Part shown: in pieces, positions 20,543 to 41,617 of the stretch | Layout of the letters: each line of letters starts with the position of its first letter | Position numbering within the stretch: the stretch's first letter is position 1 | Assembly: GCA_029246685.1 (NCBI GenBank) | Contig: JAQWMR010000013.1 | Location: 192,181 to 256,180 of the forward strand | Reading direction: 5' to 3' | Length of the DNA stretch: 64,000 nucleotides | Source: Acidimicrobiales bacterium | GTDB taxonomy: Bacteria; Actinomycetota; Acidimicrobiia; Acidimicrobiales; Aldehydirespiratoraceae | The notes under the pieces: generated by a model | Database searches by the model: none | The model's input: the letters and a program-made list of their open reading frames with translations, nothing else | Told to the model about the DNA's origin: nothing | Program-made: the position numbers and the translations under genes

Positions 20543-21490
20543 ATGCACGAACCGCGCTACGACTGGACGATCGACGAGGTCCTGGCCGTCATCGAACGGC
20601 CCTTCCACGACCTGTTGGCCGACGCCCATGGGTGCCATGTCGAGCGCTTCCGCGCGCACGAGATCGAGGCAGCCAAGCTCCTGTCGATCAAGACAGGTGG
20701 CTGCCCAGAGGATTGCGCCTACTGCCCCCAGTCGGCGCACCACGACAACGGCCTCAAGGCCGAGCCGCTGATGAAGACCGCAGAGATCCTCGAAGCCGCC
20801 AAGGAGGCGAAGGCCGAGGGCGCGACCCGCTTCTGCATGGGCGCCGCCTGGCGTGAGCCGAGCGACAAGCAGCTCGACCAGGTTGCCGAGTCCGTCTCCG
20901 CGGTCGCTGAGCTGGGCATGGAGACGTGCGTGACGCTCGGAATGCTCACCGACGACCAAGCGGGGCGCCTCGCCAACGCCGGGCTCGACTTCTACAACCA
21001 CAATCTCGACACGGCGCCGGACTTCTACGGCGAGATCATCACCACCCGTACCTACCAGGAGCGCATCGACACGCTCGGCGCGTGCCGCGACGCCGGCATC
21101 GCGCTGTGCACCGGCGGCATCGTCGGCATGGGCGAGACCCGCCGACAGCGAGCGAGCCTGCTCACGCAGCTTGCTCAGCTCGACCCGCATCCCGAGAGCG
21201 TGCCGATCAACCTGCTGATCCAGGTCGAGGGCACGCCGATGAACGGTCTGCCCGAGTTCCCACCGCTCGAACTCGTCCGCACCATCGCGGCCGCTCGCCT
21301 GGTGATGCCGACCTCCGTCGTGCGGCTCTCTGCCGGCCGGGCGTCGATGTCCGAGGAGCTCCACGCCCTGTGTCTCCACGCAGGCGCGAGCAGCATTTTC
21401 CTCGGTGAGCGACTGTTGACGGCCGACAACGCCGGCGAGGATGCCGATCAGGCGATCCTCGAACAGCTCGACACCGCGCTGAAGGTCTAG
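20543..21490 (+). CDS. bioB: Biotin synthase
   Basis: ORF 19757..21490 trimmed to ATG 20543 (MHEPRYDW). Radical-SAM motif [12 protein letters not shown] and BioB-like downstream sequence. Confidence 0.9.
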
Positions 21491-22467
21491 ACCGGGCGGG
21501 TACCCACCACGCTGGCCCGCTCCATGATCCGGATGTCGGGGTAGTAGTCGCTGGCGGCGTAGTGCTGCACGGCCGCGTTGTCCCAGAAAACGATCGTGTC
21601 GGGCTCCCAGTTCAGTCGGAACTGGTATTCGAGCACGGCGGGCTGGCTGATCAGCTCGGTGATGAGAGCACGGCTCTCCTCGTCCTCCATGCCCTCGATG
21701 TGGGAGGTGAAGTAGCCGTTGACGTAGAGCAGCTTGCGGCCCGTGACCGGGTGAGTCCGGACGACCGGGTGGCGAACAAGCGGGTACTTCTCCCGCATCT
21801 CCGCTTTCTTGTCCTCCGGCACCTGGTGGGCGAAAGCAAGCATGTAGTCGTGGATGGCGTGGAGACCGTCGATGCGTTCCTTTATTTCGTCGCTCAGGCC
21901 CTCGTACACAGCGTTCATGTCGGCGAACAAGGTGTCGCCGCCGGTCGGTGGGACCTGGATCGCATGGAGGATGGCGCCCATCGATGGCACCTCTCGCCAG
22001 GTGACGTCGTGGTGCCAGCCGTTCTCGAAGCCGCCCGTGTCGGCGCCCTTCTCGAAACGAACGAGCTCGGGGTGCTCTGCGTTGCCGGTGATGAACGGAT
22101 GGATCTCGAGGTCACCGAATCGCTTGGCGAACGCGACGTGCTGACCTGAGGTGACCGGCTGGTTGCGGAAGTAGACGACCTTGTAGTCGGCGAGCGCTCG
22201 GGCGATGTCCTCGACTTCGCCGTCGCTCAGGTCGCCGGTGAGATCGACCCCATCGATCGCGGCGCCGAGCGTGGCGCCGCGCGGCGTGACGGTGATGTGG
22301 TCGTACTGCGGGTCGGCGAGTCGCTGGCGCTCGTCCGCCAGGTGCAGCCACGGTCCGAGCGTCAGCCCGAAGCGTTCGATCACAACCCGGCCGGGGGTGA
22401 CATTGCCCGCAGGGTCGCTCGTACCGGCGGCGACAGTGTCGTCAGCCTTGGGTTCGGTCGTGGTCAT
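21487..22467 (-). CDS. TauD/TfdA-family Fe(II)/2-oxoglutarate dioxygenase (taurine-dioxygenase-like)
   Basis: ORF trimmed to ATG 22467 (MTTTEPK), which is preceded by [11 protein letters not shown] (HxD), FADM and VVRTHPVTG segments are typical of TauD. ATGA overlap with the upstream TetR gene. Confidence 0.85.
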
Positions 22468-27422: not shown

Positions 27423-28550
<1,128 letters not shown>

Positions 28551-28610
28551 GTTCACCTCCGCGTGACCTTTGTCGCACCGTACGGGATCTGACGCGCCAG
28601 ACGGCTGCGT

Positions 28611-28625
28611 GTTTGGTGTCCAAAC
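28611..28625. promoter_or_regulatory. Candidate Lrp/AsnC operator in the ald-lrp divergent region
   Basis: GTTTGG-tgt-CCAAAC palindrome, centred between the two divergent starts. Confidence 0.35.
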
Positions 28626-28678
28626 GCTCGGGTAGCGCAATAACCTGTCGCCAGAGGAACCACAGACCGGAGAATCGT

Positions 28679-29146
28679 GTGCTTATCGACCTAGACGCCA
28701 CAGATCGCAACCTTCTGCGCCTTCTTCAGGCCGACGCGCGCATGACCAATGCCGCGCTCGCAGAGGAAGTGCACCTGTCCCCGAGCGCTTGCCTTCGACG
28801 GGTGCGGCGGCTCGAGGAGTCCGGCGTAGTCACCGGATACGTGGCGGTCCTCGACCGTACGATGATCGGTCGAGGCACGTCCGTGTTCGTCGAGATTACC
28901 CTCTCGAGCCAGCAGGAGGACCTGCTCGACGAGTTCGAGACGGCGGTGCGCGACGTGCCGGAGGTGCTGAGTTGCCACCTGATGGCCGGCAACAGCGACT
29001 ATCTCGTCCACGTCGCGGCAGACGACGTCGCCGACTACGAACGCATCCACCGGACCTACCTTGCTCTGCTGCCTCATGTCGCTCAGCTGCGATCGAGCTT
29101 CGCTCTGCGGACCGTCTGCGATCGCAAGGCCCACGAGCTGGGCTGA
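28679..29146 (+). CDS. Lrp/AsnC-family transcriptional regulator (AldR-like position)
   Basis: ORF trimmed to GTG 28679. LDATDRNLLRLLQADARMTNAALAEEVHLSPSACLRRVRRLEESGV HTH plus a RAM-like C-terminus. Divergent from ald. Confidence 0.85.
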   Translation: MLIDLDATDRNLLRLLQADARMTNAALAEEVHLSPSACLRRVRRLEESGVVTGYVAVLDRTMIGRGTSVFVEITLSSQQEDLLDEFETAVRDVPEVLSCHLMAGNSDYLVHVAADDVADYERIHRTYLALLPHVAQLRSSFALRTVCDRKAHELG

Positions 29147-29694: not shown

Positions 29695-32532
29695 TTAAGA
29701 AGGCTGGGGGGTGCCGAGGTGATACATCGGAGCGGCGGGCTTCAGGGGGCGGGCGTACCAGAGCGGGCGGCGCAGGCCGCCGGGGCCGGGGGCGGGGCGC
29801 GTCTTGCTCAACCAGTCCAGGTAGGCCTCGCGGGACTTTGCTGTGTCGACGACGACATCGCCGTACTGATCGCCGCCCTCCGCGGGCGTGACCGTCACGC
29901 GTTGGTGCCAGCACTGCATGCCGGAGATGGGGTCTGGCTGCACGGAGAACGTCAGGTTCTGATGCACGCCGGTGTCGTTCCACCAGATGCGGTTCGAGTC
30001 CGGATCATCCGAGACGAACTTCCGAATGCCGTCGGTACGGCTGAGCTTCCAGGTGCCGTCGGACTGCTTGTCGATGGTGGCCTTGCCGGTACCCCATGAC
30101 CGCGCCTTGTCTTCTTCGATGCGCCAGCGGCCCATGTGGTGCGACGCGGCGACGACGCCGGGGCGAATTCCCTCCGTGCGCCATGCCTGGATGACGAAGT
30201 GGCCGATGCGAGTCGAGATGCGGACGAGTCCGTTCTCTTCGATCCCGAGCACCTCGGCGTCGCTCGGATGAATCCACAGCGGGTGTCGGTGGCTGATCTC
30301 GTTGAGCCACTTGGAGTTGGCCGAGCGCGTATGGATCAGCGTCGGAATCCGGAAGGTCGGGAGCAGGATGCGCTCCCCCGCTTCCATGTCCAGGTCCTCG
30401 TGATGCACGTGCGACGGGATCCAGGTGGGGGCCGCGTACTCCGGCCAACCCCAGTCCTTCAGCGTGGTCGAGAAGAGCTCCAGCTTCTTCGACGGCGTCG
30501 GGAAGCCCTCCTTGATCTCACCGTCGATCTCGACAGCAGGTGAGCCCTCGCCGAGGTCAGCCAGCGCGATCTCGTCGAGTCCCTCGGCCGTGCCGTCCCA
30601 GGTGGCGATCGTGCCGGGCTTTCGGAAGACACCGTCGTCGCCCTTTACACAATCGGTGACCTCGTCGGGCAAAACGATGCGTTCGTATGGCGTAATCATG
30701 TCGCCCGGCACGGCATACGATCCGACGTCGCGCATGAACTCGAGCGGGGTCTTGCCCGCCGCCGCGGCGTCCTCGGCGAGGCCGGGGACGGACTCGGCGA
30801 ACATCGTGCCGTAGTACTCGTCGACCGTGATCGGCGTGCCAGGTCGCTCGTCGGACTCGAACCATTGACGGATTCCTCGGGACCCGTCGGGGTCGATGTG
30901 CCATGAGAGGTCGATCCAGAACTCGTTCTCTTCCCACACCTCACCCGGATTGAACTCGTGGGTTCGGGTCTCGTGGTCGAGCTCCGCTCCGCGGATCTCG
31001 GCATAGCGCCGCATGACGGGCTGGCGGAAGCCGATCCAGCGGCCGTTGTGCGTCTCGAAGCTGGCGATGTCGTGACGCTCGGTGCCGATGCCCATCGGGA
31101 GCACGTAGTCCGCGAACCAGGATGTCTCCGACCAGGTCGGCGTGAGGGCGACGTGGCACTTCACCTTCGACTCGTCGGTGAGCGCCTCCATCCACGAGAA
31201 GCCGTCCGGGTTCGTCCAGATCGGGTTGTAGACGCGGCTGAAGTAGACGTCGAGCGTGCCCCGTCCCTCGTTCAGGAAGTGCGGCAGGAGGATCGACATC
31301 TCGTGGTACGAGAGCGGGAACTCCTTCGGCCACGAGAGCTCGTTCCACTCGTTGAGCGCCGGCGCTCCCTTGGGCTGAGCCGGCTTGAACTTGTTCCATC
31401 CGTTGCCGCTCGTTCCGCCGACCGTGGCCACAGAGCCGGTCAGGACGTTCAGGAAGAACAGGCAGCGGGCGGTCTGCCAGCCGCCGAGGTTGCCGGCACC
31501 GGCGGCACGCCAGTTGTGGGATGCGAACTTGGTCGGGTGCGCGCCGATGATCCCGGCGATCTCCCGCAGTTGGTCACCGTCCACGCCGCTGATCTCCTCC
31601 GCGGCGTCGACGGTGTACTCGGCGTAGGCGTCGAGCAGGGCCTGTTCGACGGACTCGAACTCGACCGGAAGGTCGGGCCGGGTCTCCTGGAGATACGTCT
31701 CCCAGTTGGTCCAGCGGCGGACGAAGTCCTTCTCCCATGTGCCGTTCTCGATCAGGAGGCGAGCGATTGCGAGCAGCATGAACGGCTCGGTGCCCGGCCA
31801 CGCCGGCAGCCAGTGGTCGGCTTTCGAGCCCGTGTTCGAGAGACGTGGGTCGACGCAGATGACCGTCGCACCCTTCTGCTGCGCTTCGATGATCCGCTGC
31901 GCGTGCGGGTTGAAGTAGTGGCCGGACTCGAGGTGCGACGAGATGAGGAAGACCACTTCGGCGTTCGCGAAGTCGGACGACGGCCGATCGTGGCCCATCC
32001 AGCTCTGGTAGCCGATCCGGGCGTTGGACGAGCAGATGTTGGTGTGGCTGTTGTGGCCGTCGACGCCCCAGGACTTGAGCACCCGGTCGGCGTAGCCGTC
32101 CTCGCCGGGACGACCGACGTGGTACATGATCCCGTCGCGACGGTCTTCGTCCATCGCGGTGGCGATGCGGTTGCCGATGTCGGTGAGAGCTTCCTCCCAG
32201 GAGACGCGTTCCCACTGGCCGGAGCCGCGCTCACCGACCCGCTTCATCGGGTGGAGCACTCGCTCGGTGTCGTTGACCTGGTTGAGAGTGGCCGGGCCCT
32301 TCGCGCAGTTGCGACCGCGCGACGCGGGGTGCAGCGGGTTGCCCTCGATCTTGTCGATCTCGCCGGTCTCGTGGTTGACGTGGGCGAGAAGGCCACACGC
32401 GGCTTCGCAGTTGAAGCAGGTCGTGGGCACCAACGAGTGGTGCTCTTCGACCTTGTCGGGCCACGCCTTGGCGTTGAGCGACGTGACGTCGTGCCAGTCC
32501 TCGTGGGGTGGGTACTGCTGTAGATCGGTCAT
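29695..32532 (-). CDS. Molybdopterin (bis-MGD) oxidoreductase catalytic subunit, no Tat signal
   Basis: 945 aa. N-terminal FS0 motif CFNCEAACGLL...GRNCAKG, a candidate Cys Mo-ligand segment GHNSHTNICSSNAR, and MopB-like sequence throughout. The N-terminus MTDLQQYPPHEDW lacks a twin-arginine motif. Confidence 0.9.
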   Translation of the reverse strand: MTDLQQYPPHEDWHDVTSLNAKAWPDKVEEHHSLVPTTCFNCEAACGLLAHVNHETGEIDKIEGNPLHPASRGRNCAKGPATLNQVNDTERVLHPMKRVGERGSGQWERVSWEEALTDIGNRIATAMDEDRRDGIMYHVGRPGEDGYADRVLKSWGVDGHNSHTNICSSNARIGYQSWMGHDRPSSDFANAEVVFLISSHLESGHYFNPHAQRIIEAQQKGATVICVDPRLSNTGSKADHWLPAWPGTEPFMLLAIARLLIENGTWEKDFVRRWTNWETYLQETRPDLPVEFESVEQALLDAYAEYTVDAAEEISGVDGDQLREIAGIIGAHPTKFASHNWRAAGAGNLGGWQTARCLFFLNVLTGSVATVGGTSGNGWNKFKPAQPKGAPALNEWNELSWPKEFPLSYHEMSILLPHFLNEGRGTLDVYFSRVYNPIWTNPDGFSWMEALTDESKVKCHVALTPTWSETSWFADYVLPMGIGTERHDIASFETHNGRWIGFRQPVMRRYAEIRGAELDHETRTHEFNPGEVWEENEFWIDLSWHIDPDGSRGIRQWFESDERPGTPITVDEYYGTMFAESVPGLAEDAAAAGKTPLEFMRDVGSYAVPGDMITPYERIVLPDEVTDCVKGDDGVFRKPGTIATWDGTAEGLDEIALADLGEGSPAVEIDGEIKEGFPTPSKKLELFSTTLKDWGWPEYAAPTWIPSHVHHEDLDMEAGERILLPTFRIPTLIHTRSANSKWLNEISHRHPLWIHPSDAEVLGIEENGLVRISTRIGHFVIQAWRTEGIRPGVVAASHHMGRWRIEEDKARSWGTGKATIDKQSDGTWKLSRTDGIRKFVSDDPDSNRIWWNDTGVHQNLTFSVQPDPISGMQCWHQRVTVTPAEGGDQYGDVVVDTAKSREAYLDWLSKTRPAPGPGGLRRPLWYARPLKPAAPMYHLGTPQPS

Positions 32533-32540
32533 CGGCGTTC

Positions 32541-34142
32541 CTAGGAGAGCGGCACGGACTGGCCGGCACGGACGAAGGCGTCTTCATAGGCCCACATACC
32601 GGCGAGCGCCGCGACACCCGCGGCCGCCGGGAGTGCCGGGCCCGTGTCGGCGGCGATCGAAATGGTCAGGATGGCGCCCGGCGTGAGCAGCCCGACGAGC
32701 ATGCCGAACCAGAACCGGTCCTTGTACTTGCCTCTGATCATGTGATGGAGCGCAGCCTCGACATGGGGTGTGCCCTTCGATGTCGCCTCGATCGAGACGA
32801 TCGTCGCGGTGGCGATGGCGCCCGCGAGGAATGTCCAGCGCACCGCATCGACCTCGGGGACAACCATGAAGAGGTCGATGATCGAGTACGTCGCGCCGCC
32901 GGCGGTGACCGCCTGCGCAAGCAACGTCGGGAGCAGCAGCGGCGTCCGCCAGAGGTCACGACCCTCACACTGGCCGAAGAGGAACGCCGTGTAGCCGGCA
33001 GTTGCGGCGGCGAGGATCGCCGTGGGGATTGCGGCCGCCTCGATGATGCCGGGGGAATCCTTGAGGCCTCCCACCCACCAGGCGGCGAGCGCCACGGCGA
33101 ATCCGGCGAGGATGTACGCGCCGCGGACGAGCCACGACTCCCAGCTCCCGCGGGTGATGAGGTAGTGGAAGCGACCCGGCTGCTTTAGGTCGGCCACGAG
33201 CAGCACACCGGTGAGGCCGAGGAATGCACCGGCGACCATCGGTGGGACCACGCCGACGGCGGCCTGTTCGGCGCTGTGGCCCATGAGGACGAGAAGCGCG
33301 GCCACCAACATCACGCCGGCGGCGATCGCCTTGGTGACGAGATAGCCCGACACCTTCTCCTTCCAGGTCATCTGGTGAGAGGTTGTGTAGGCAGTGCGAG
33401 CGACGACGCCGTGACTGTCGGGCGGGACGGTGGGGTGCGCGGGCGTGGTGTCGGCCCAGATCATGCCGTCTTTCGCGATCGCGGTCCGTAGAGGATTGAG
33501 CGATGCCTGATCCGCGCCTCGGTAGTAGACCTTCGGGTTCGTCCCCTGCTCGGGAGCCCGAACGGCTACCGGCTCGCGAGCGATGATGCTGGTGGCGAGG
33601 TTCAGTGGATCGTCGAGATCCGCAACTTTGATCGCATGGGTCGGGCAGACGACGACGCACGAGGGCTCGAGATTCTGTTCGATCCGGTGGTTGCAGAAGT
33701 TGCACTTCTGGGCGGTGTTCGTCGCGGGGTTGATGTACAGCGCGTCGTACGGGCACGCGTTCATGCAGCCTTTGCAGCCGATGCAATTGTCGTCGTTGAA
33801 GTCGACGACACCATTCTCCGCCCGGTACAGCGCGTTCGTCGGGCAGATCGACATGCACGGTGCGTCGTCACACTGGTTGCAACGCATCACCGAGAAGTGA
33901 CGGCTGACGTTCGGGAACGAACCACTCTCGATGTACTTCACCCAGGTGCGGTTCACACCCAGCGGCACGTCGTGTTCGCTCTTGCACGCGACGGTGCACG
34001 CGTGACAGCCGATGCAGGAGTCGCTGTCGAGAAGGAAGCCGAGTCTGGTCACCAAAGGCCTATCGGTCACGCCGGAGCGAAATGTACGGACAAATGAGTG
34101 TAGCCATTGGCTACGTAGCGCGACCGTTAGAGGTCGTGACAA
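32541..34142 (-). CDS. Fusion of 4Fe-4S ferredoxin-type (NrfC/PsrB-like) subunit and NrfD/PsrC-like membrane anchor
   Basis: N-terminal half has four Cys clusters (CIGCHACTVACK, CNQCDDAPCMSICP, CIGCKGCMNACP, CNFCNHR...CVVVCP). C-terminal half has about 8 predicted TM helices. The TTG 34142 start is doubtful, and GTG 34070 (VTDRPLVTRLGFLLD) is more plausible. Confidence 0.85.
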   Translation of the reverse strand: MSRPLTVALRSQWLHSFVRTFRSGVTDRPLVTRLGFLLDSDSCIGCHACTVACKSEHDVPLGVNRTWVKYIESGSFPNVSRHFSVMRCNQCDDAPCMSICPTNALYRAENGVVDFNDDNCIGCKGCMNACPYDALYINPATNTAQKCNFCNHRIEQNLEPSCVVVCPTHAIKVADLDDPLNLATSIIAREPVAVRAPEQGTNPKVYYRGADQASLNPLRTAIAKDGMIWADTTPAHPTVPPDSHGVVARTAYTTSHQMTWKEKVSGYLVTKAIAAGVMLVAALLVLMGHSAEQAAVGVVPPMVAGAFLGLTGVLLVADLKQPGRFHYLITRGSWESWLVRGAYILAGFAVALAAWWVGGLKDSPGIIEAAAIPTAILAAATAGYTAFLFGQCEGRDLWRTPLLLPTLLAQAVTAGGATYSIIDLFMVVPEVDAVRWTFLAGAIATATIVSIEATSKGTPHVEAALHHMIRGKYKDRFWFGMLVGLLTPGAILTISIAADTGPALPAAAGVAALAGMWAYEDAFVRAGQSVPLS

Positions 34143-34161
34143 ATCGGTTAGAGACTCTAAC
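34100..34161. promoter_or_regulatory. Cluster of perfect palindromes in the divergent control region
   Basis: GTAGCCATTGGCTAC (34100-34114), CGACC-n6-GGTCG (34121-34136) and GTTAGAGACTCTAAC (34147-34161). GTTAGAG is also repeated directly 21 bp apart (34126 and 34147). Confidence 0.45.
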
Positions 34162-34199
34162 GCACCGCGAAGCGCCCAGGGAGCACTACCTTTCTGGCG

Positions 34200-35021
34200 A
34201 TGCCGAGCCCCCGTCCGAACCCTTGGGACGCTGCGTTCTTAGCCGTGTCGCTCGCCCGCTACGACCTGGCAGAACTCATCGAACCCGACCGGCATTTCGC
34301 ATGGCTCGATGACCTCGCCACCCTGGGAGTCACCGTGACCGAAGGCGTCCCGAGGGACCGCTCGGGGTTGACGGCGGTGGCGGATCTGATCGGGATCATG
34401 GAATCCAACAACTATGGGATCGACTGGGACATCGTCTCCACTGCCGACCCGTTCAACCAGGTCGACTCTGACCTGCCCCTCCGGGTGCACTCGGACCTTC
34501 CCTACCGACGACTGCCGCCGGGATTCCAGGTGCTGCTGGCCGCTGAGGCCTCAGCCGAGGGTGGCGAGACGCTGTTGGTCGATGGCTACCGGCTGTCGGC
34601 ACGAATTCAGGAGGATGATCCGGATGCCTGGGCGACGCTGACGACGGTGGACCGCGCGTTCAGCTACATCCGGCCGGAGCAGCGCTACATCGGCGGCGGC
34701 CCGATCGTCGGGTTGGACGCAGAGGGCGCGCCCGACGTCATTCGCCATGCGCCGGACCTCGTGCTCCCCGTCCGAGACGGAGACGGTGCCGCCGCCGATC
34801 GCGCGCTCGAGATCTTCGTGTCCACGGCTGCCTCCGCTGAGCTCGAGTTCCGCATCCGGCTCGAACCCGGCCAGGCGCTGACCGTCAACAACCATCGGGT
34901 TCTCCACGGACGTGGTCCGGTGGACCTGGGCACTGGTGAGCGCCGCCTCCTCGGGTGCTATATCGGATCGGACGAGTTCGCGTCCGCTCGACGAGTACTC
35001 GAGCGAGACCTCGGCTCGTGA
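34200..35021 (+). CDS. TauD/TfdA-superfamily Fe(II)/2OG dioxygenase, gamma-butyrobetaine-hydroxylase-like (PhnY*/TmpA-like candidate)
   Basis: HSDLPY (HxD), PPGFQVLLAAEASAEGGETLLVDG, NNHRVLHGR and RLLGCYI. This is a catalytic domain only (273 aa). Confidence 0.8.
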   Translation: MPSPRPNPWDAAFLAVSLARYDLAELIEPDRHFAWLDDLATLGVTVTEGVPRDRSGLTAVADLIGIMESNNYGIDWDIVSTADPFNQVDSDLPLRVHSDLPYRRLPPGFQVLLAAEASAEGGETLLVDGYRLSARIQEDDPDAWATLTTVDRAFSYIRPEQRYIGGGPIVGLDAEGAPDVIRHAPDLVLPVRDGDGAAADRALEIFVSTAASAELEFRIRLEPGQALTVNNHRVLHGRGPVDLGTGERRLLGCYIGSDEFASARRVLERDLGS

Positions 35022-40453: not shown

Positions 40454-41617
40454 TCAGATCGGTCGAAAGCGGTCGACGTAGGCAGCGAAACGATCGCGGA
40501 TCTGCCCGTCGGAGAGGCCGAAGTCGGACGTACGGTATGACGGCCTGGTCGCATGCTCGCGGGGTCGGGTGTCGTGCCAGCGGCGCATGGTGGTCTCGGC
40601 ACCCGGCGACAGGGTGAGCCCGATCGCGGCGTAGACATGGCGTACTGCGGCGATCGGATCGGCGACCGCGTCCTCGAACTGGATGTCGGTGCACCGGCCG
40701 TTGTCACCCCAGCGGGCCCGGATGGCGAGGGCTCGGTCGTTGGTGAAGCCCATGCGTTCGATCCACTCCGCTCCCACCTGCGTCGGATCGACCTCGTCGG
40801 CGTGCATTCGCCACAACGTGGTGTTCAAACTGGCGCCTGACGGAATCGTGTCGAGCGGATCGCGGTGCATGTGAACAATGTGGGCATCCGGGAACCGAGC
40901 AACGAGCGTGTCGAGGTAGCCGAGGTGCGCAGGCGTCTTCAGCACCCAGCGCTCAGCGCTGAGGCCTCGCTGGCGCTTCTGCCACTGCAGGAGCTGGAGC
41001 ATGCGGTGGAGGTGGTCGTACGCGGGCGCGAAGTCCTGCGTGTCGAGCCAGCTCCGGTAAGCGGGCACGTGCGCCGACGCCTCCGGCACGTGCGAGAGGA
41101 AGGCATCGGCGAGGAACATGATTTCCTCCTCGGCCTGCTCTGCATACATGGGATGGATCGCGAAGAGATCAGGCACGAAGGCGCGGCTCTGTTCCTCGCG
41201 GGCGCGCGCCGCCGCGATCCTGGGCTCCGAACCCTCCCAGTCGATGTCGAGTGGCGGGGCGACCTCGCCGACTTCCCAGCCGTAGGCACAGTGGGATCGA
41301 GCGTCCGCGGCGAGGAGGCGTTGCATGAGCGTGGTGCCGCTTCGCATCATTCCGACCACGACGATCGGCGAGATGATCCGTTCCTCCGCGATCTCCGGGT
41401 GTCGCCGGAACCACTCGGTCGCCCGGAGGCGCATGGCGAGGCTGTGGACCACGCCGCTCCGCAGGATGTGCGAGCCGAGTTCGTTCAGCGGCGCCGCCGA
41501 ATAGCTGTCGAGAAGCACGCCGAGCGGGTCGTCGAACGCGCCGGGACCCCAGTCGTCGAGGTCGTCGACAGCGCGGGCGTCGGCCTGTACCGAATCGAGG
41601 GTGAAGGCTGGCAACAC
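40454..41617 (-). CDS. Sulfotransferase-family protein
   Basis: PAPS 5'-phosphosulfate-binding loop VVGMMRSGTTLMQRLL and the overall length are typical of bacterial Sulfotransfer_3 proteins. Confidence 0.7.
   Translation of the reverse strand: MLPAFTLDSVQADARAVDDLDDWGPGAFDDPLGVLLDSYSAAPLNELGSHILRSGVVHSLAMRLRATEWFRRHPEIAEERIISPIVVVGMMRSGTTLMQRLLAADARSHCAYGWEVGEVAPPLDIDWEGSEPRIAAARAREEQSRAFVPDLFAIHPMYAEQAEEEIMFLADAFLSHVPEASAHVPAYRSWLDTQDFAPAYDHLHRMLQLLQWQKRQRGLSAERWVLKTPAHLGYLDTLVARFPDAHIVHMHRDPLDTIPSGASLNTTLWRMHADEVDPTQVGAEWIERMGFTNDRALAIRARWGDNGRCTDIQFEDAVADPIAAVRHVYAAIGLTLSPGAETTMRRWHDTRPREHATRPSYRTSDFGLSDGQIRDRFAAYVDRFRPI

Follow-up and report, generated by a model that had tools for sequence, protein, structure and literature searches.

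The window analyzed here, a 64,000-nucleotide (nt) stretch of an Acidimicrobiales genome (GCA_029246685.1, contig JAQWMR010000013.1, positions 192,181 to 256,180), encodes on its minus strand two adjacent genes of a putative molybdenum enzyme: one for a protein in which a ferredoxin-type iron-sulfur (FeS) subunit is fused to an NrfD-type membrane anchor, and one, directly downstream, for a catalytic subunit of the MopB superfamily that lacks a twin-arginine translocation (Tat) signal. We read the pair as a cytoplasm-facing, membrane-anchored sulfite:quinone oxidoreductase, which would do the job of the sulfite dehydrogenase SoeABC with a different build, and we put the probability of this reading at roughly 0.55. 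An earlier inspection of the sequence alone (the original prediction) had proposed this two-gene unit, and in our reading of the window both open reading frames (ORFs) are found at the same coordinates and on the same strand. It had also held the substrate to be unassignable from the sequence by eye, whereas the gene context across the family, together with the Xsc and TauD genes elsewhere in the genome of the window, makes sulfite the best-supported candidate. A link from sulfite to a quinone is the simplest scheme because persulfide dioxygenase (PDO), encoded beside a number of copies of the pair, makes cytoplasmic sulfite, because a SulP permease could export the sulfate and because SoeABC provides a precedent.

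The fused gene and its family

The upstream ORF has a Fer4_11 domain and 16 cysteines in four ferredoxin groups, followed by a Pfam NrfD domain and eight hydrophobic helices, and its ferredoxin domain is expected to hold four [4Fe-4S] clusters. The 533-amino-acid (aa) frame originally given for it (32541-34142, from TTG 34142) is only the longest possible ORF. Homologues of the fused protein start MTRLGFLLDSDSC... (MTRLGFLL...), which points to GTG 34052 (503 aa) or TTG 34055 (504 aa), and gene callers assign the window's protein the latter start. The true start is probably GTG 34052, with the extension to TTG 34142 probably untranslated, so that the fusion, the four cysteine groups and the eight helices of the original prediction hold and its length does not. 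The catalytic ORF opens at the first start codon following an in-frame stop. An AGGAA Shine-Dalgarno sequence 6 nt before its ATG shares nucleotides with the stop codon of the fused gene (TAGGAA), and tandem translation of the two genes is therefore probable.

The family was surveyed with a pattern scan, led by an alignment from Myxococcota, of one genome per GTDB species, which returned at least 600 matching stretches, with 596 confirmed relatives. Gene neighborhoods were taken from the 80 best of these matches, a non-random sample that includes Actinomycetota (among them Mycobacterium and Micromonospora), Gemmatimonadota, Acidobacteriota, Chloroflexota, Planctomycetota, Binatia, Myxococcota and Dormibacterota. 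Of these 80 loci, from at least eight phyla, 75 have the fused gene immediately ahead of the MopB gene on the same strand, and more than 100 protein clusters of 503-517 aa have both the ferredoxin and the NrfD domain. The fusion is therefore not a sequencing error, a possibility that the original prediction had raised, and the joining of the B and C subunits and their position before A are the family norm. What had been taken for a rearranged Soe layout is the standard layout of a separate and very large family.

Cultured carriers include Rhodococcus jostii RHA1, on plasmid pRHL3, and Thermomicrobium roseum (both 56% identical). A tblastn search of PLSDB found catalytic subunits 49-52% identical over 98% of their length on haloarchaeal megaplasmids (Natrinema, Halomarina and Halomicrococcus), and by this sequence similarity the family crosses the boundary between the bacterial and archaeal domains. 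Further matches of that search in Ruegeria, Phaeobacter, Variovorax and Mesorhizobium were unrelated MopB enzymes, and a tblastn search of PLSDB with E. coli DmsC matched Enterobacterales only. Within Acidimicrobiia the fused subunit is present in 28 of the 201 sampled genomes (14%) and is patchy, ranging from 6 of 6 in one family to 0 of 36 in another. A few Acidimicrobiia genomes have two neighboring matches tens of nt apart, one to the ferredoxin half (residues 3-202) and one to the NrfD half (residues 202-503), which may reflect frameshifts or separate B and C genes. One carrier, a metagenome-assembled genome (MAG) from a sponge (L036/G001), is labeled "Gammaproteobacteria bacterium". This label is probably wrong or unreliable, because the MopB of this MAG groups with Longimicrobiales and because over a third of the genomes sampled from its GTDB class (more than 130 of 401) have full-length matches to the family, at 54-59% identity.

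Cofactor motifs and predicted orientation

The 945-aa protein is a MopB catalytic subunit by its Pfam domains, and both motifs originally picked out in it were recovered. The FS0 cysteines (C39, C42, C46 and C76) are invariant in 30 of 30 family members, and the candidate Mo ligand within GHNSHTNICSS is Cys167 (codon 32032-32034), whose aligned counterpart in Thermus thermophilus PsrA is Cys173, reportedly the Mo ligand in the PsrABC structure. Cys167 is kept in 28 of the 30 members, in a family motif N-[IV]-C-S-[SA] that reads N-I-C-S-S in the window. The best relatives of the subunit among solved structures are PsrA (2vpw, E = 1.6e-31) and ArrA (6cz7). In a search of the NCBIfam models neither protein reached an equivalog cut-off: the catalytic subunit scores 99.7 bits with the TtrA model (cut-off 1750) and 184 bits with the PhsA model (cut-off 694), and the ferredoxin domain is most similar to TtrB (158 bits versus a cut-off of 416), NrfC and ArrB, all far under their cut-offs. 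The anchor half matches no curated NCBIfam anchor family and has weak DsrP/NrfD hits only, with no hit to the TtrC model, to which Proteus TtrC, as a control, scores 553 bits against a cut-off of 314. Its quinone-pocket residues Y237, D288, S306 and Y354-T355 are conserved in the family and align one-to-one with Proteus TtrC. A three-way fusion of FeS, NrfD and MopB parts, considered for some very long frames (1300-1700 aa), was rejected: their N-terminal extensions have no match to the FeS-NrfD model, and the frames are artifacts of high G+C content.

There is no twin arginine in the first 38 residues of the catalytic subunit, and the fused protein begins 12 residues ahead of its first cluster cysteine, which leaves it without a signal peptide. 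On these N-termini a hidden Tat leader is ruled out for both proteins, since no earlier in-frame start is open to the MopB gene and the FeS protein begins so close to its first cysteine; the claim that both are Tat-less thus holds with the corrected start included, and the position of the Shine-Dalgarno sequence agrees with it. By hydropathy and alignment, the window's fused protein has 14 lysines and arginines (K+R) in its ferredoxin-side loops versus 1 in the opposite loops, and in ten family members from other phyla the counts are 9-13 versus 0-2. Three NrfD-type anchors with Tat-bearing partners, Proteus TtrC included, served as a control and gave 5:2, 3:4 and 6:8, which is a lost K/R bias, not a clean reversal. 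Given this bias and the positive-inside rule, the ferredoxin side is predicted to be cytoplasmic and the anchor to be inverted relative to Psr/Ttr-type enzymes, in agreement with the cytoplasm-facing complex first proposed. The fusion of B and C would be allowed because nothing is exported and the C-terminus of the ferredoxin domain and the N-terminus of the anchor would lie on the same, cytoplasmic side; in an exported enzyme, such a fusion should clash with Tat export of the folded B subunit.

Sulfur genes around the pair and in the genome of the window

We clustered every ORF lying up to 8 kb from any of the 80 loci and checked the clusters against Pfam. A TorD/NarJ-type maturation chaperone is encoded directly downstream of the catalytic gene in 43 loci. 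The commonest transporter neighbor is a SulP/STAS permease (21 loci), PDO-like proteins of the metallo-beta-lactamase (MBL) fold, mostly fused to rhodanese, are found in 19-21, and DsrE-like proteins and TusA in 10 each; altogether, 34 loci from several phyla have at least one sulfur-linked neighbor. The genome of the window has a single SulP homologue (634 bits) and 10 genes that match a loose PDO model, and from these counts chance adjacency within 16 kb is about 0.4% for SulP and about 4% for PDO. Neither formate-related genes nor ars, aio or arr genes recur in the 80 neighborhoods. As examples of individual loci, R. jostii RHA1 pRHL3 has the order DsrE-TusA-fusion-MopB-Mrp/NBP35, divergent from genes for two MBL proteins, two DUF202 proteins and an ArsR/SmtB regulator; in T. 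roseum a CsoR/CstR-type regulator gene is immediately upstream of the pair; and on a Myxococcota contig the order is PDO-rhodanese, two YeeE/YedE genes, fusion and MopB.

Sources of sulfite are encoded elsewhere in the genome of the window (3.8 Mb, 94% complete). One is a bona fide Xsc, sulfoacetaldehyde acetyltransferase (C12:263602-265347; 981 bits, cut-off 676). About 800 nt upstream of its gene, in the same orientation, is a TauE/SafE-family gene (C12:262127-262807), the classic pairing of sulfonate degradation. Moreover, 23 TauD/TfdA-family dioxygenases match above the Pfam cut-off, a striking expansion, as among 14 control genomes E. coli alone has any. A profile search found no DsrE-like gene in this genome. 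In the scheme that we infer, intracellular sulfite would be oxidized to sulfate at a Mo center with two molybdopterin guanine dinucleotides (bis-MGD) and Cys167 as ligand. The sulfite would come from Xsc and the sulfonate dioxygenases in the organism of the window and from PDO in other carriers, a quinone would accept the electrons and pass them as quinol to the respiratory chain, and the sulfate would leave through a SulP-type permease.

Comparison with known systems and alternative readings

SoeABC offers the best functional analogy and would be the closest analogue in function and topology. Like the family, it is a complex iron-sulfur molybdoenzyme (CISM), in which a catalytic subunit lacking a Tat signal is combined with a ferredoxin module of four clusters and an anchor of the NrfD type. 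It, too, is found in organisms and gene clusters that produce cytoplasmic sulfite, and its predicted orientation, with an inverted anchor, is toward the cytoplasm (PMC8076601). Known examples are those of Allochromatium vinosum Alvin_2491-2489, Aquifex aeolicus aq_1234/1232/1231 and Ruegeria pomeroyi. As an analogy, the parallel that the original prediction drew to SoeABC stands; as a match in build it fails, since SoeABC is encoded by three separate genes in the order A-B-C and the family by two, the fused BC and then A, and since the family anchor has an invariant Asp (D288) with Tyr, Ser and Tyr-Thr, unlike the His65, Ser82 and other residues of SoeC. In a review of NrfD proteins, His65 is reported for SoeC and DmsC and Asp for TtrC, PsrC and "FqoC", and SoeC is limited to Proteobacteria, Clostridia and Aquificae (PMC8076601). 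Gene order, B-C fusion and anchor residues, those of SoeC as described in the literature, would thus set the family apart from SoeABC, for whose catalytic subunit NCBIfam has no model.

We take CT0494-0496 of C. tepidum to be the complex named PSRLC3, and if it is, the sulfite and formate labels in the literature conflict. PSRLC3, an uncharacterized CISM of green sulfur bacteria, has been "inferred to be sulfite oxidase" (PMC9324843) and termed "an alternative sulfite-oxidizing system" (PMC6338057). The family fits it, as likened by a published residue list, by taxa and by description: Tyr16, Asp65, Ser81 and Tyr147-Thr148 of CT0494 match Y237, D288, S306 and Y354-T355, and relatives of the CT0494 complex are reported from Actinobacteria, Chloroflexi, Deltaproteobacteria and Crenarchaeota (PMC8076601), which matches the spread of the family loci over Actinobacteria, Chloroflexi, Deltaproteobacteria/Myxococcota and archaea. 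The setting differs, green sulfur bacteria being anaerobic phototrophs with Dsr and the carrier of the window a marine heterotroph. The CT0494 complex and its relatives have also been given the tentative name "FqoABC", for a formate:quinone oxidoreductase (Calisto and Pereira 2021), on the likeness of their peripheral subunits to FdnGH (PMC8076601), and both the FqoC anchor residues and a similar taxonomic spread are found in the family. For the family we regard formate as a very improbable substrate. The catalytic subunit scores far under the cut-offs of the NCBIfam formate dehydrogenase models, and in the 80 neighborhoods it is sulfur genes that recur. Formate dehydrogenases have a Cys/Sec-His dyad, as in SeCys140-His141 of E. 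coli FdhH. The label is contradicted because the catalytic His after Cys/Sec, present as ICHS in the aligned solved FdhA, is Ser in 28 of the 30 family members and because formate genes are missing nearby.

A more serious alternative, which we still think unlikely, is that an enzyme of this inward-facing build uses a different sulfur species (thiosulfate, persulfide bound to TusA or DsrE, polysulfide or tetrathionate), in either direction, as an oxidoreductase or a reductase. The B-C-A order is that of ttrBCA (and of srdBCA), among NCBIfam models TtrB scores highest with the ferredoxin domain, and the quinone pocket has exactly the signature of Proteus TtrC; like PsrABC of T. thermophilus (2vpw) and PhsABC, the family follows the same A/B/C module logic with the Mo-ligand Cys and FS0 conserved. 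TusA/DsrE-like carriers are encoded directly upstream in 10 loci and in RHA1, and rhodanese-fused PDOs can, as is generally known of CstB-type enzymes, make thiosulfate. The known enzymes, however, differ in ways that matter. TtrA is Tat-bearing and faces the periplasm, TtrB and TtrC are separate proteins, and TtrA and PhsA fall outside the family clade (see below), and the catalytic subunit of the window scores far below the equivalog cut-offs of both. PsrABC and PhsABC are periplasmic and Tat-dependent, with catalytic subunits of about 760 aa (945 aa here) that align well only over the N-terminal third and branch separately in the MopB tree, and PhsC is a cytochrome b, not an NrfD protein. 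In addition, the commonest transporter neighbor belongs to the sulfate permease family, and many carriers are apparently aerobic heterotrophs with an O2-dependent PDO, which favors an oxidative end step.

Improbable, in our view, is a cytoplasmic non-sulfur oxyanion (arsenite/arsenate, selenate/selenite or similar) or a substrate not imagined here. Within MopB, changes among S, As and Se substrates are frequent in enzymes of the Psr/Arr/Ttr/Srd kind (PMC10100899), the operon of a marine lineage (L133) has an ArsC-family gene at a distance of about 2.5 kb, and a Tat-bearing Psr-like enzyme of Azoarcus adjoins arsB and an AioXSR-like regulator set. That enzyme, however, falls in the Psr-like clade, outside the fused family, whose neighborhoods have no recurrent arsenic genes, and ArsC-family proteins are small thiol-redox proteins of broad function.

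Several points weigh against sulfite oxidation itself. The nearest characterized enzymes by sequence (PsrA, PhsA and ArrA) are reductases, and we know of no family member that has been assayed, as far as the searched literature shows. The true substrate could be thiosulfate, which PDO-rhodanese fusions are able to form, or a sulfane carrier (TusA/DsrE). The neighbors of the pair in the window are not sulfur genes and vary among close relatives, and the TauE-family gene beside xsc and one SUOX-domain gene make other outlets for sulfite, by export or oxidation, possible. Also, a profile search of the 94%-complete genome found no TorD/NarJ-type chaperone gene, versus 43 of the 80 loci that have one beside the pair. 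The window's own case for sulfite is weaker than the family-wide case.

Phylogeny and origin

A maximum-likelihood MopB tree (51 rows, made up of family members, Tat-bearing Psr-like proteins, PhsA, TtrA and outgroups; 981 columns, LG+C20, quick search) places all fused Tat-less proteins and three Tat-bearing relatives in a single clade, with a value of 99 in the Shimodaira-Hasegawa approximate likelihood ratio test (SH-aLRT) and a stem length of 1.05. This clade is separate from the Tat-bearing Psr-like clade, from the PhsA of an E. coli plasmid and from Proteus TtrA, the identity of which was verified by its NCBIfam equivalog (2039 bits versus a cut-off of 1750); PhsA, TtrA and the outgroups are on long branches, so their exact positions are unsure. 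Within this comparison, then, the window's enzyme is not inside a known periplasmic clade, a placement that the original prediction had named as refuting it, and it is the three Tat-bearing relatives that lie inside the family's. Within the family, the branching order does not track taxonomy and points to frequent horizontal transfer.

In P0247, the nearest Tat-bearing relative for which gene context is available, B and C are split, the order is B-C-A and a NarJ/TorD-type chaperone is also encoded. Tat signals are present in 13 of the 22 inspected full-length nearest representatives, and the BC-A order in all four whose context was examined. Since P0247, Tat-bearing and with split B and C in this order, sits in the family clade, the inward-facing form may derive from an exported Ttr/Psr-like ancestor, the direction of change being the one we infer. 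The Tat-bearing sisters in the clade (L010:1745-8720, the contig of P0247, and L014) are 1115-1123 aa long and have as neighbors a cytochrome c, split FeS and NrfD proteins, a NarJ-like chaperone and an extra 359-aa poly-ferredoxin; by their sequence they would be an exported variant.

For the family as a whole, we propose tentatively, with odds that we judge to fall slightly short of even, that non-proteobacterial heterotrophs (Actinomycetota, Gemmatimonadota, Acidobacteriota, Chloroflexota, Planctomycetota, Myxococcota and haloarchaea) have in it their main sulfite:quinone oxidoreductase of the cytoplasm, a non-orthologous counterpart of SoeABC that arose from a Ttr/Psr-like periplasmic enzyme by Tat loss, anchor inversion and B-C fusion. 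A study of marine sediment found PDO expression in these phyla, while SoeABC went undetected (PMC12345210).

Control region and neighboring genes in the window

The operon and a divergent TauD-like gene share a control region (Table 1) with two palindromes of 7-bp arms, GTAGCCAATGGCTAC (34100-34114) and GTTAGAGTCTCTAAC (34147-34161), neither of which is common to the relatives compared in a k-mer scan. A box, TGTCCGTACAT (34082-34092), lies 30-40 nt before the corrected start of the fused gene and is also present in an 86%-identical relative, and in an 80% relative two copies of its core, TATGTCCG, precede the operon; the box may act as an operator or promoter element. Counterparts of the box or its core in relatives lie at about 5430-5445 of L135 and in the upstream region of L132.

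Upstream in the window (about 66% G+C) are the divergent TauD-family gene and a class V aminotransferase gene, and downstream are genes for a YbaK-like tRNA_edit protein, AsnC, alanine dehydrogenase and an amidohydrolase. Comparison with three close marine relatives shows other genes upstream, and only the AsnC-alanine dehydrogenase pair recurs. The pair of TauD-like and aminotransferase genes, tried as a conserved partner of the operon, is missing in all three and was rejected, and the weak link once drawn to a TauD gene at 21487 and a sulfotransferase gene at 40454 does not survive this comparison. The AsnC/Lrp regulator gene is divergent from that for alanine dehydrogenase, just downstream of the operon, in the window (27423-29146) and in two relatives (L132:11690-13703 and L135:10353-12083). 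The small ArsC-family (PF03960) gene of the marine Acidimicrobiia lineage mentioned above (L133:2877-3179) could be a coincidence or a redox partner.

Table 1. Coordinates of the operon, of nearby features in the window and of related loci in other records
Feature	Position	Strand	Basis
Catalytic subunit, 945-aa Tat-less MopB with predicted bis-MGD	29695..32532	(-)	Pfam Molybdop_Fe4S4, Molybdopterin and Molydop_binding
8-nt spacer between fused-gene stop and catalytic-gene ATG	32533..32540	(-)	Sequence read directly
Fused electron-transfer and anchor subunit, probably 503 aa from GTG 34052	32541..34052	(-)	Homologue N-termini; sequence; Pfam Fer4_11 and NrfD
Ferredoxin domain, residues 1-205, 16 Cys in four groups	33438..34052	(-)	Sequence read directly
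NrfD-type anchor domain, residues 226-503, 8 predicted transmembrane helices	32544..33377	(-)	Hydropathy; K/R counts; Pfam NrfD
Divergent control region, common to the operon and the TauD-like gene at 34200	34053..34199	(.)	Palindrome and k-mer scan; sequence
TauD-family copy near the locus	C13:213694-214467 (window ~21514-22287)		Pfam match
TauD-family copy near the locus	C13:226437-227141 (window ~34257-34961)		Pfam match
Split-half loci	G421:C32:43778-45424; G524:C260:5164-6750		Adjacent matches
Haloarchaeal plasmid records with a family catalytic subunit	NZ_CP084880.1, NZ_CP100446.1, NZ_CP119993.1 and others		PLSDB tblastn

Implications

As an ordinary representative of a large, long-predicted family, the copy in the window adds little beyond another marine example. 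The family itself has no curated NCBIfam model and has drawn two conflicting guesses in the literature, sulfite and formate. IMG gives it generic names ("anaerobic selenocysteine-containing dehydrogenase", "Fe-S-cluster-containing dehydrogenase component/..."), in contrast to the specific enzyme name of a Psr-type relative; we take generic names to be derived from COG and specific ones from KEGG. Because the names of the family are of the generic kind, the soeABC label is apparently missed, and surveys based on KEGG seem to leave the family out of their soeABC counts. Genetically tractable carriers exist in R. jostii RHA1 (pRHL3) and T. roseum. If sulfite oxidation is its true function, the family would fill a gap left by field studies, in which PDO and sulfonate-cleaving enzymes are widespread and expressed and soeABC is rare or undetected (PMC12345210), and the capacity for sulfite oxidation in oceans, soils and sediments would have been systematically under-counted. 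Marine Acidimicrobiia, in that case, would complete the catabolism of organosulfonates such as taurine and isethionate to sulfate.

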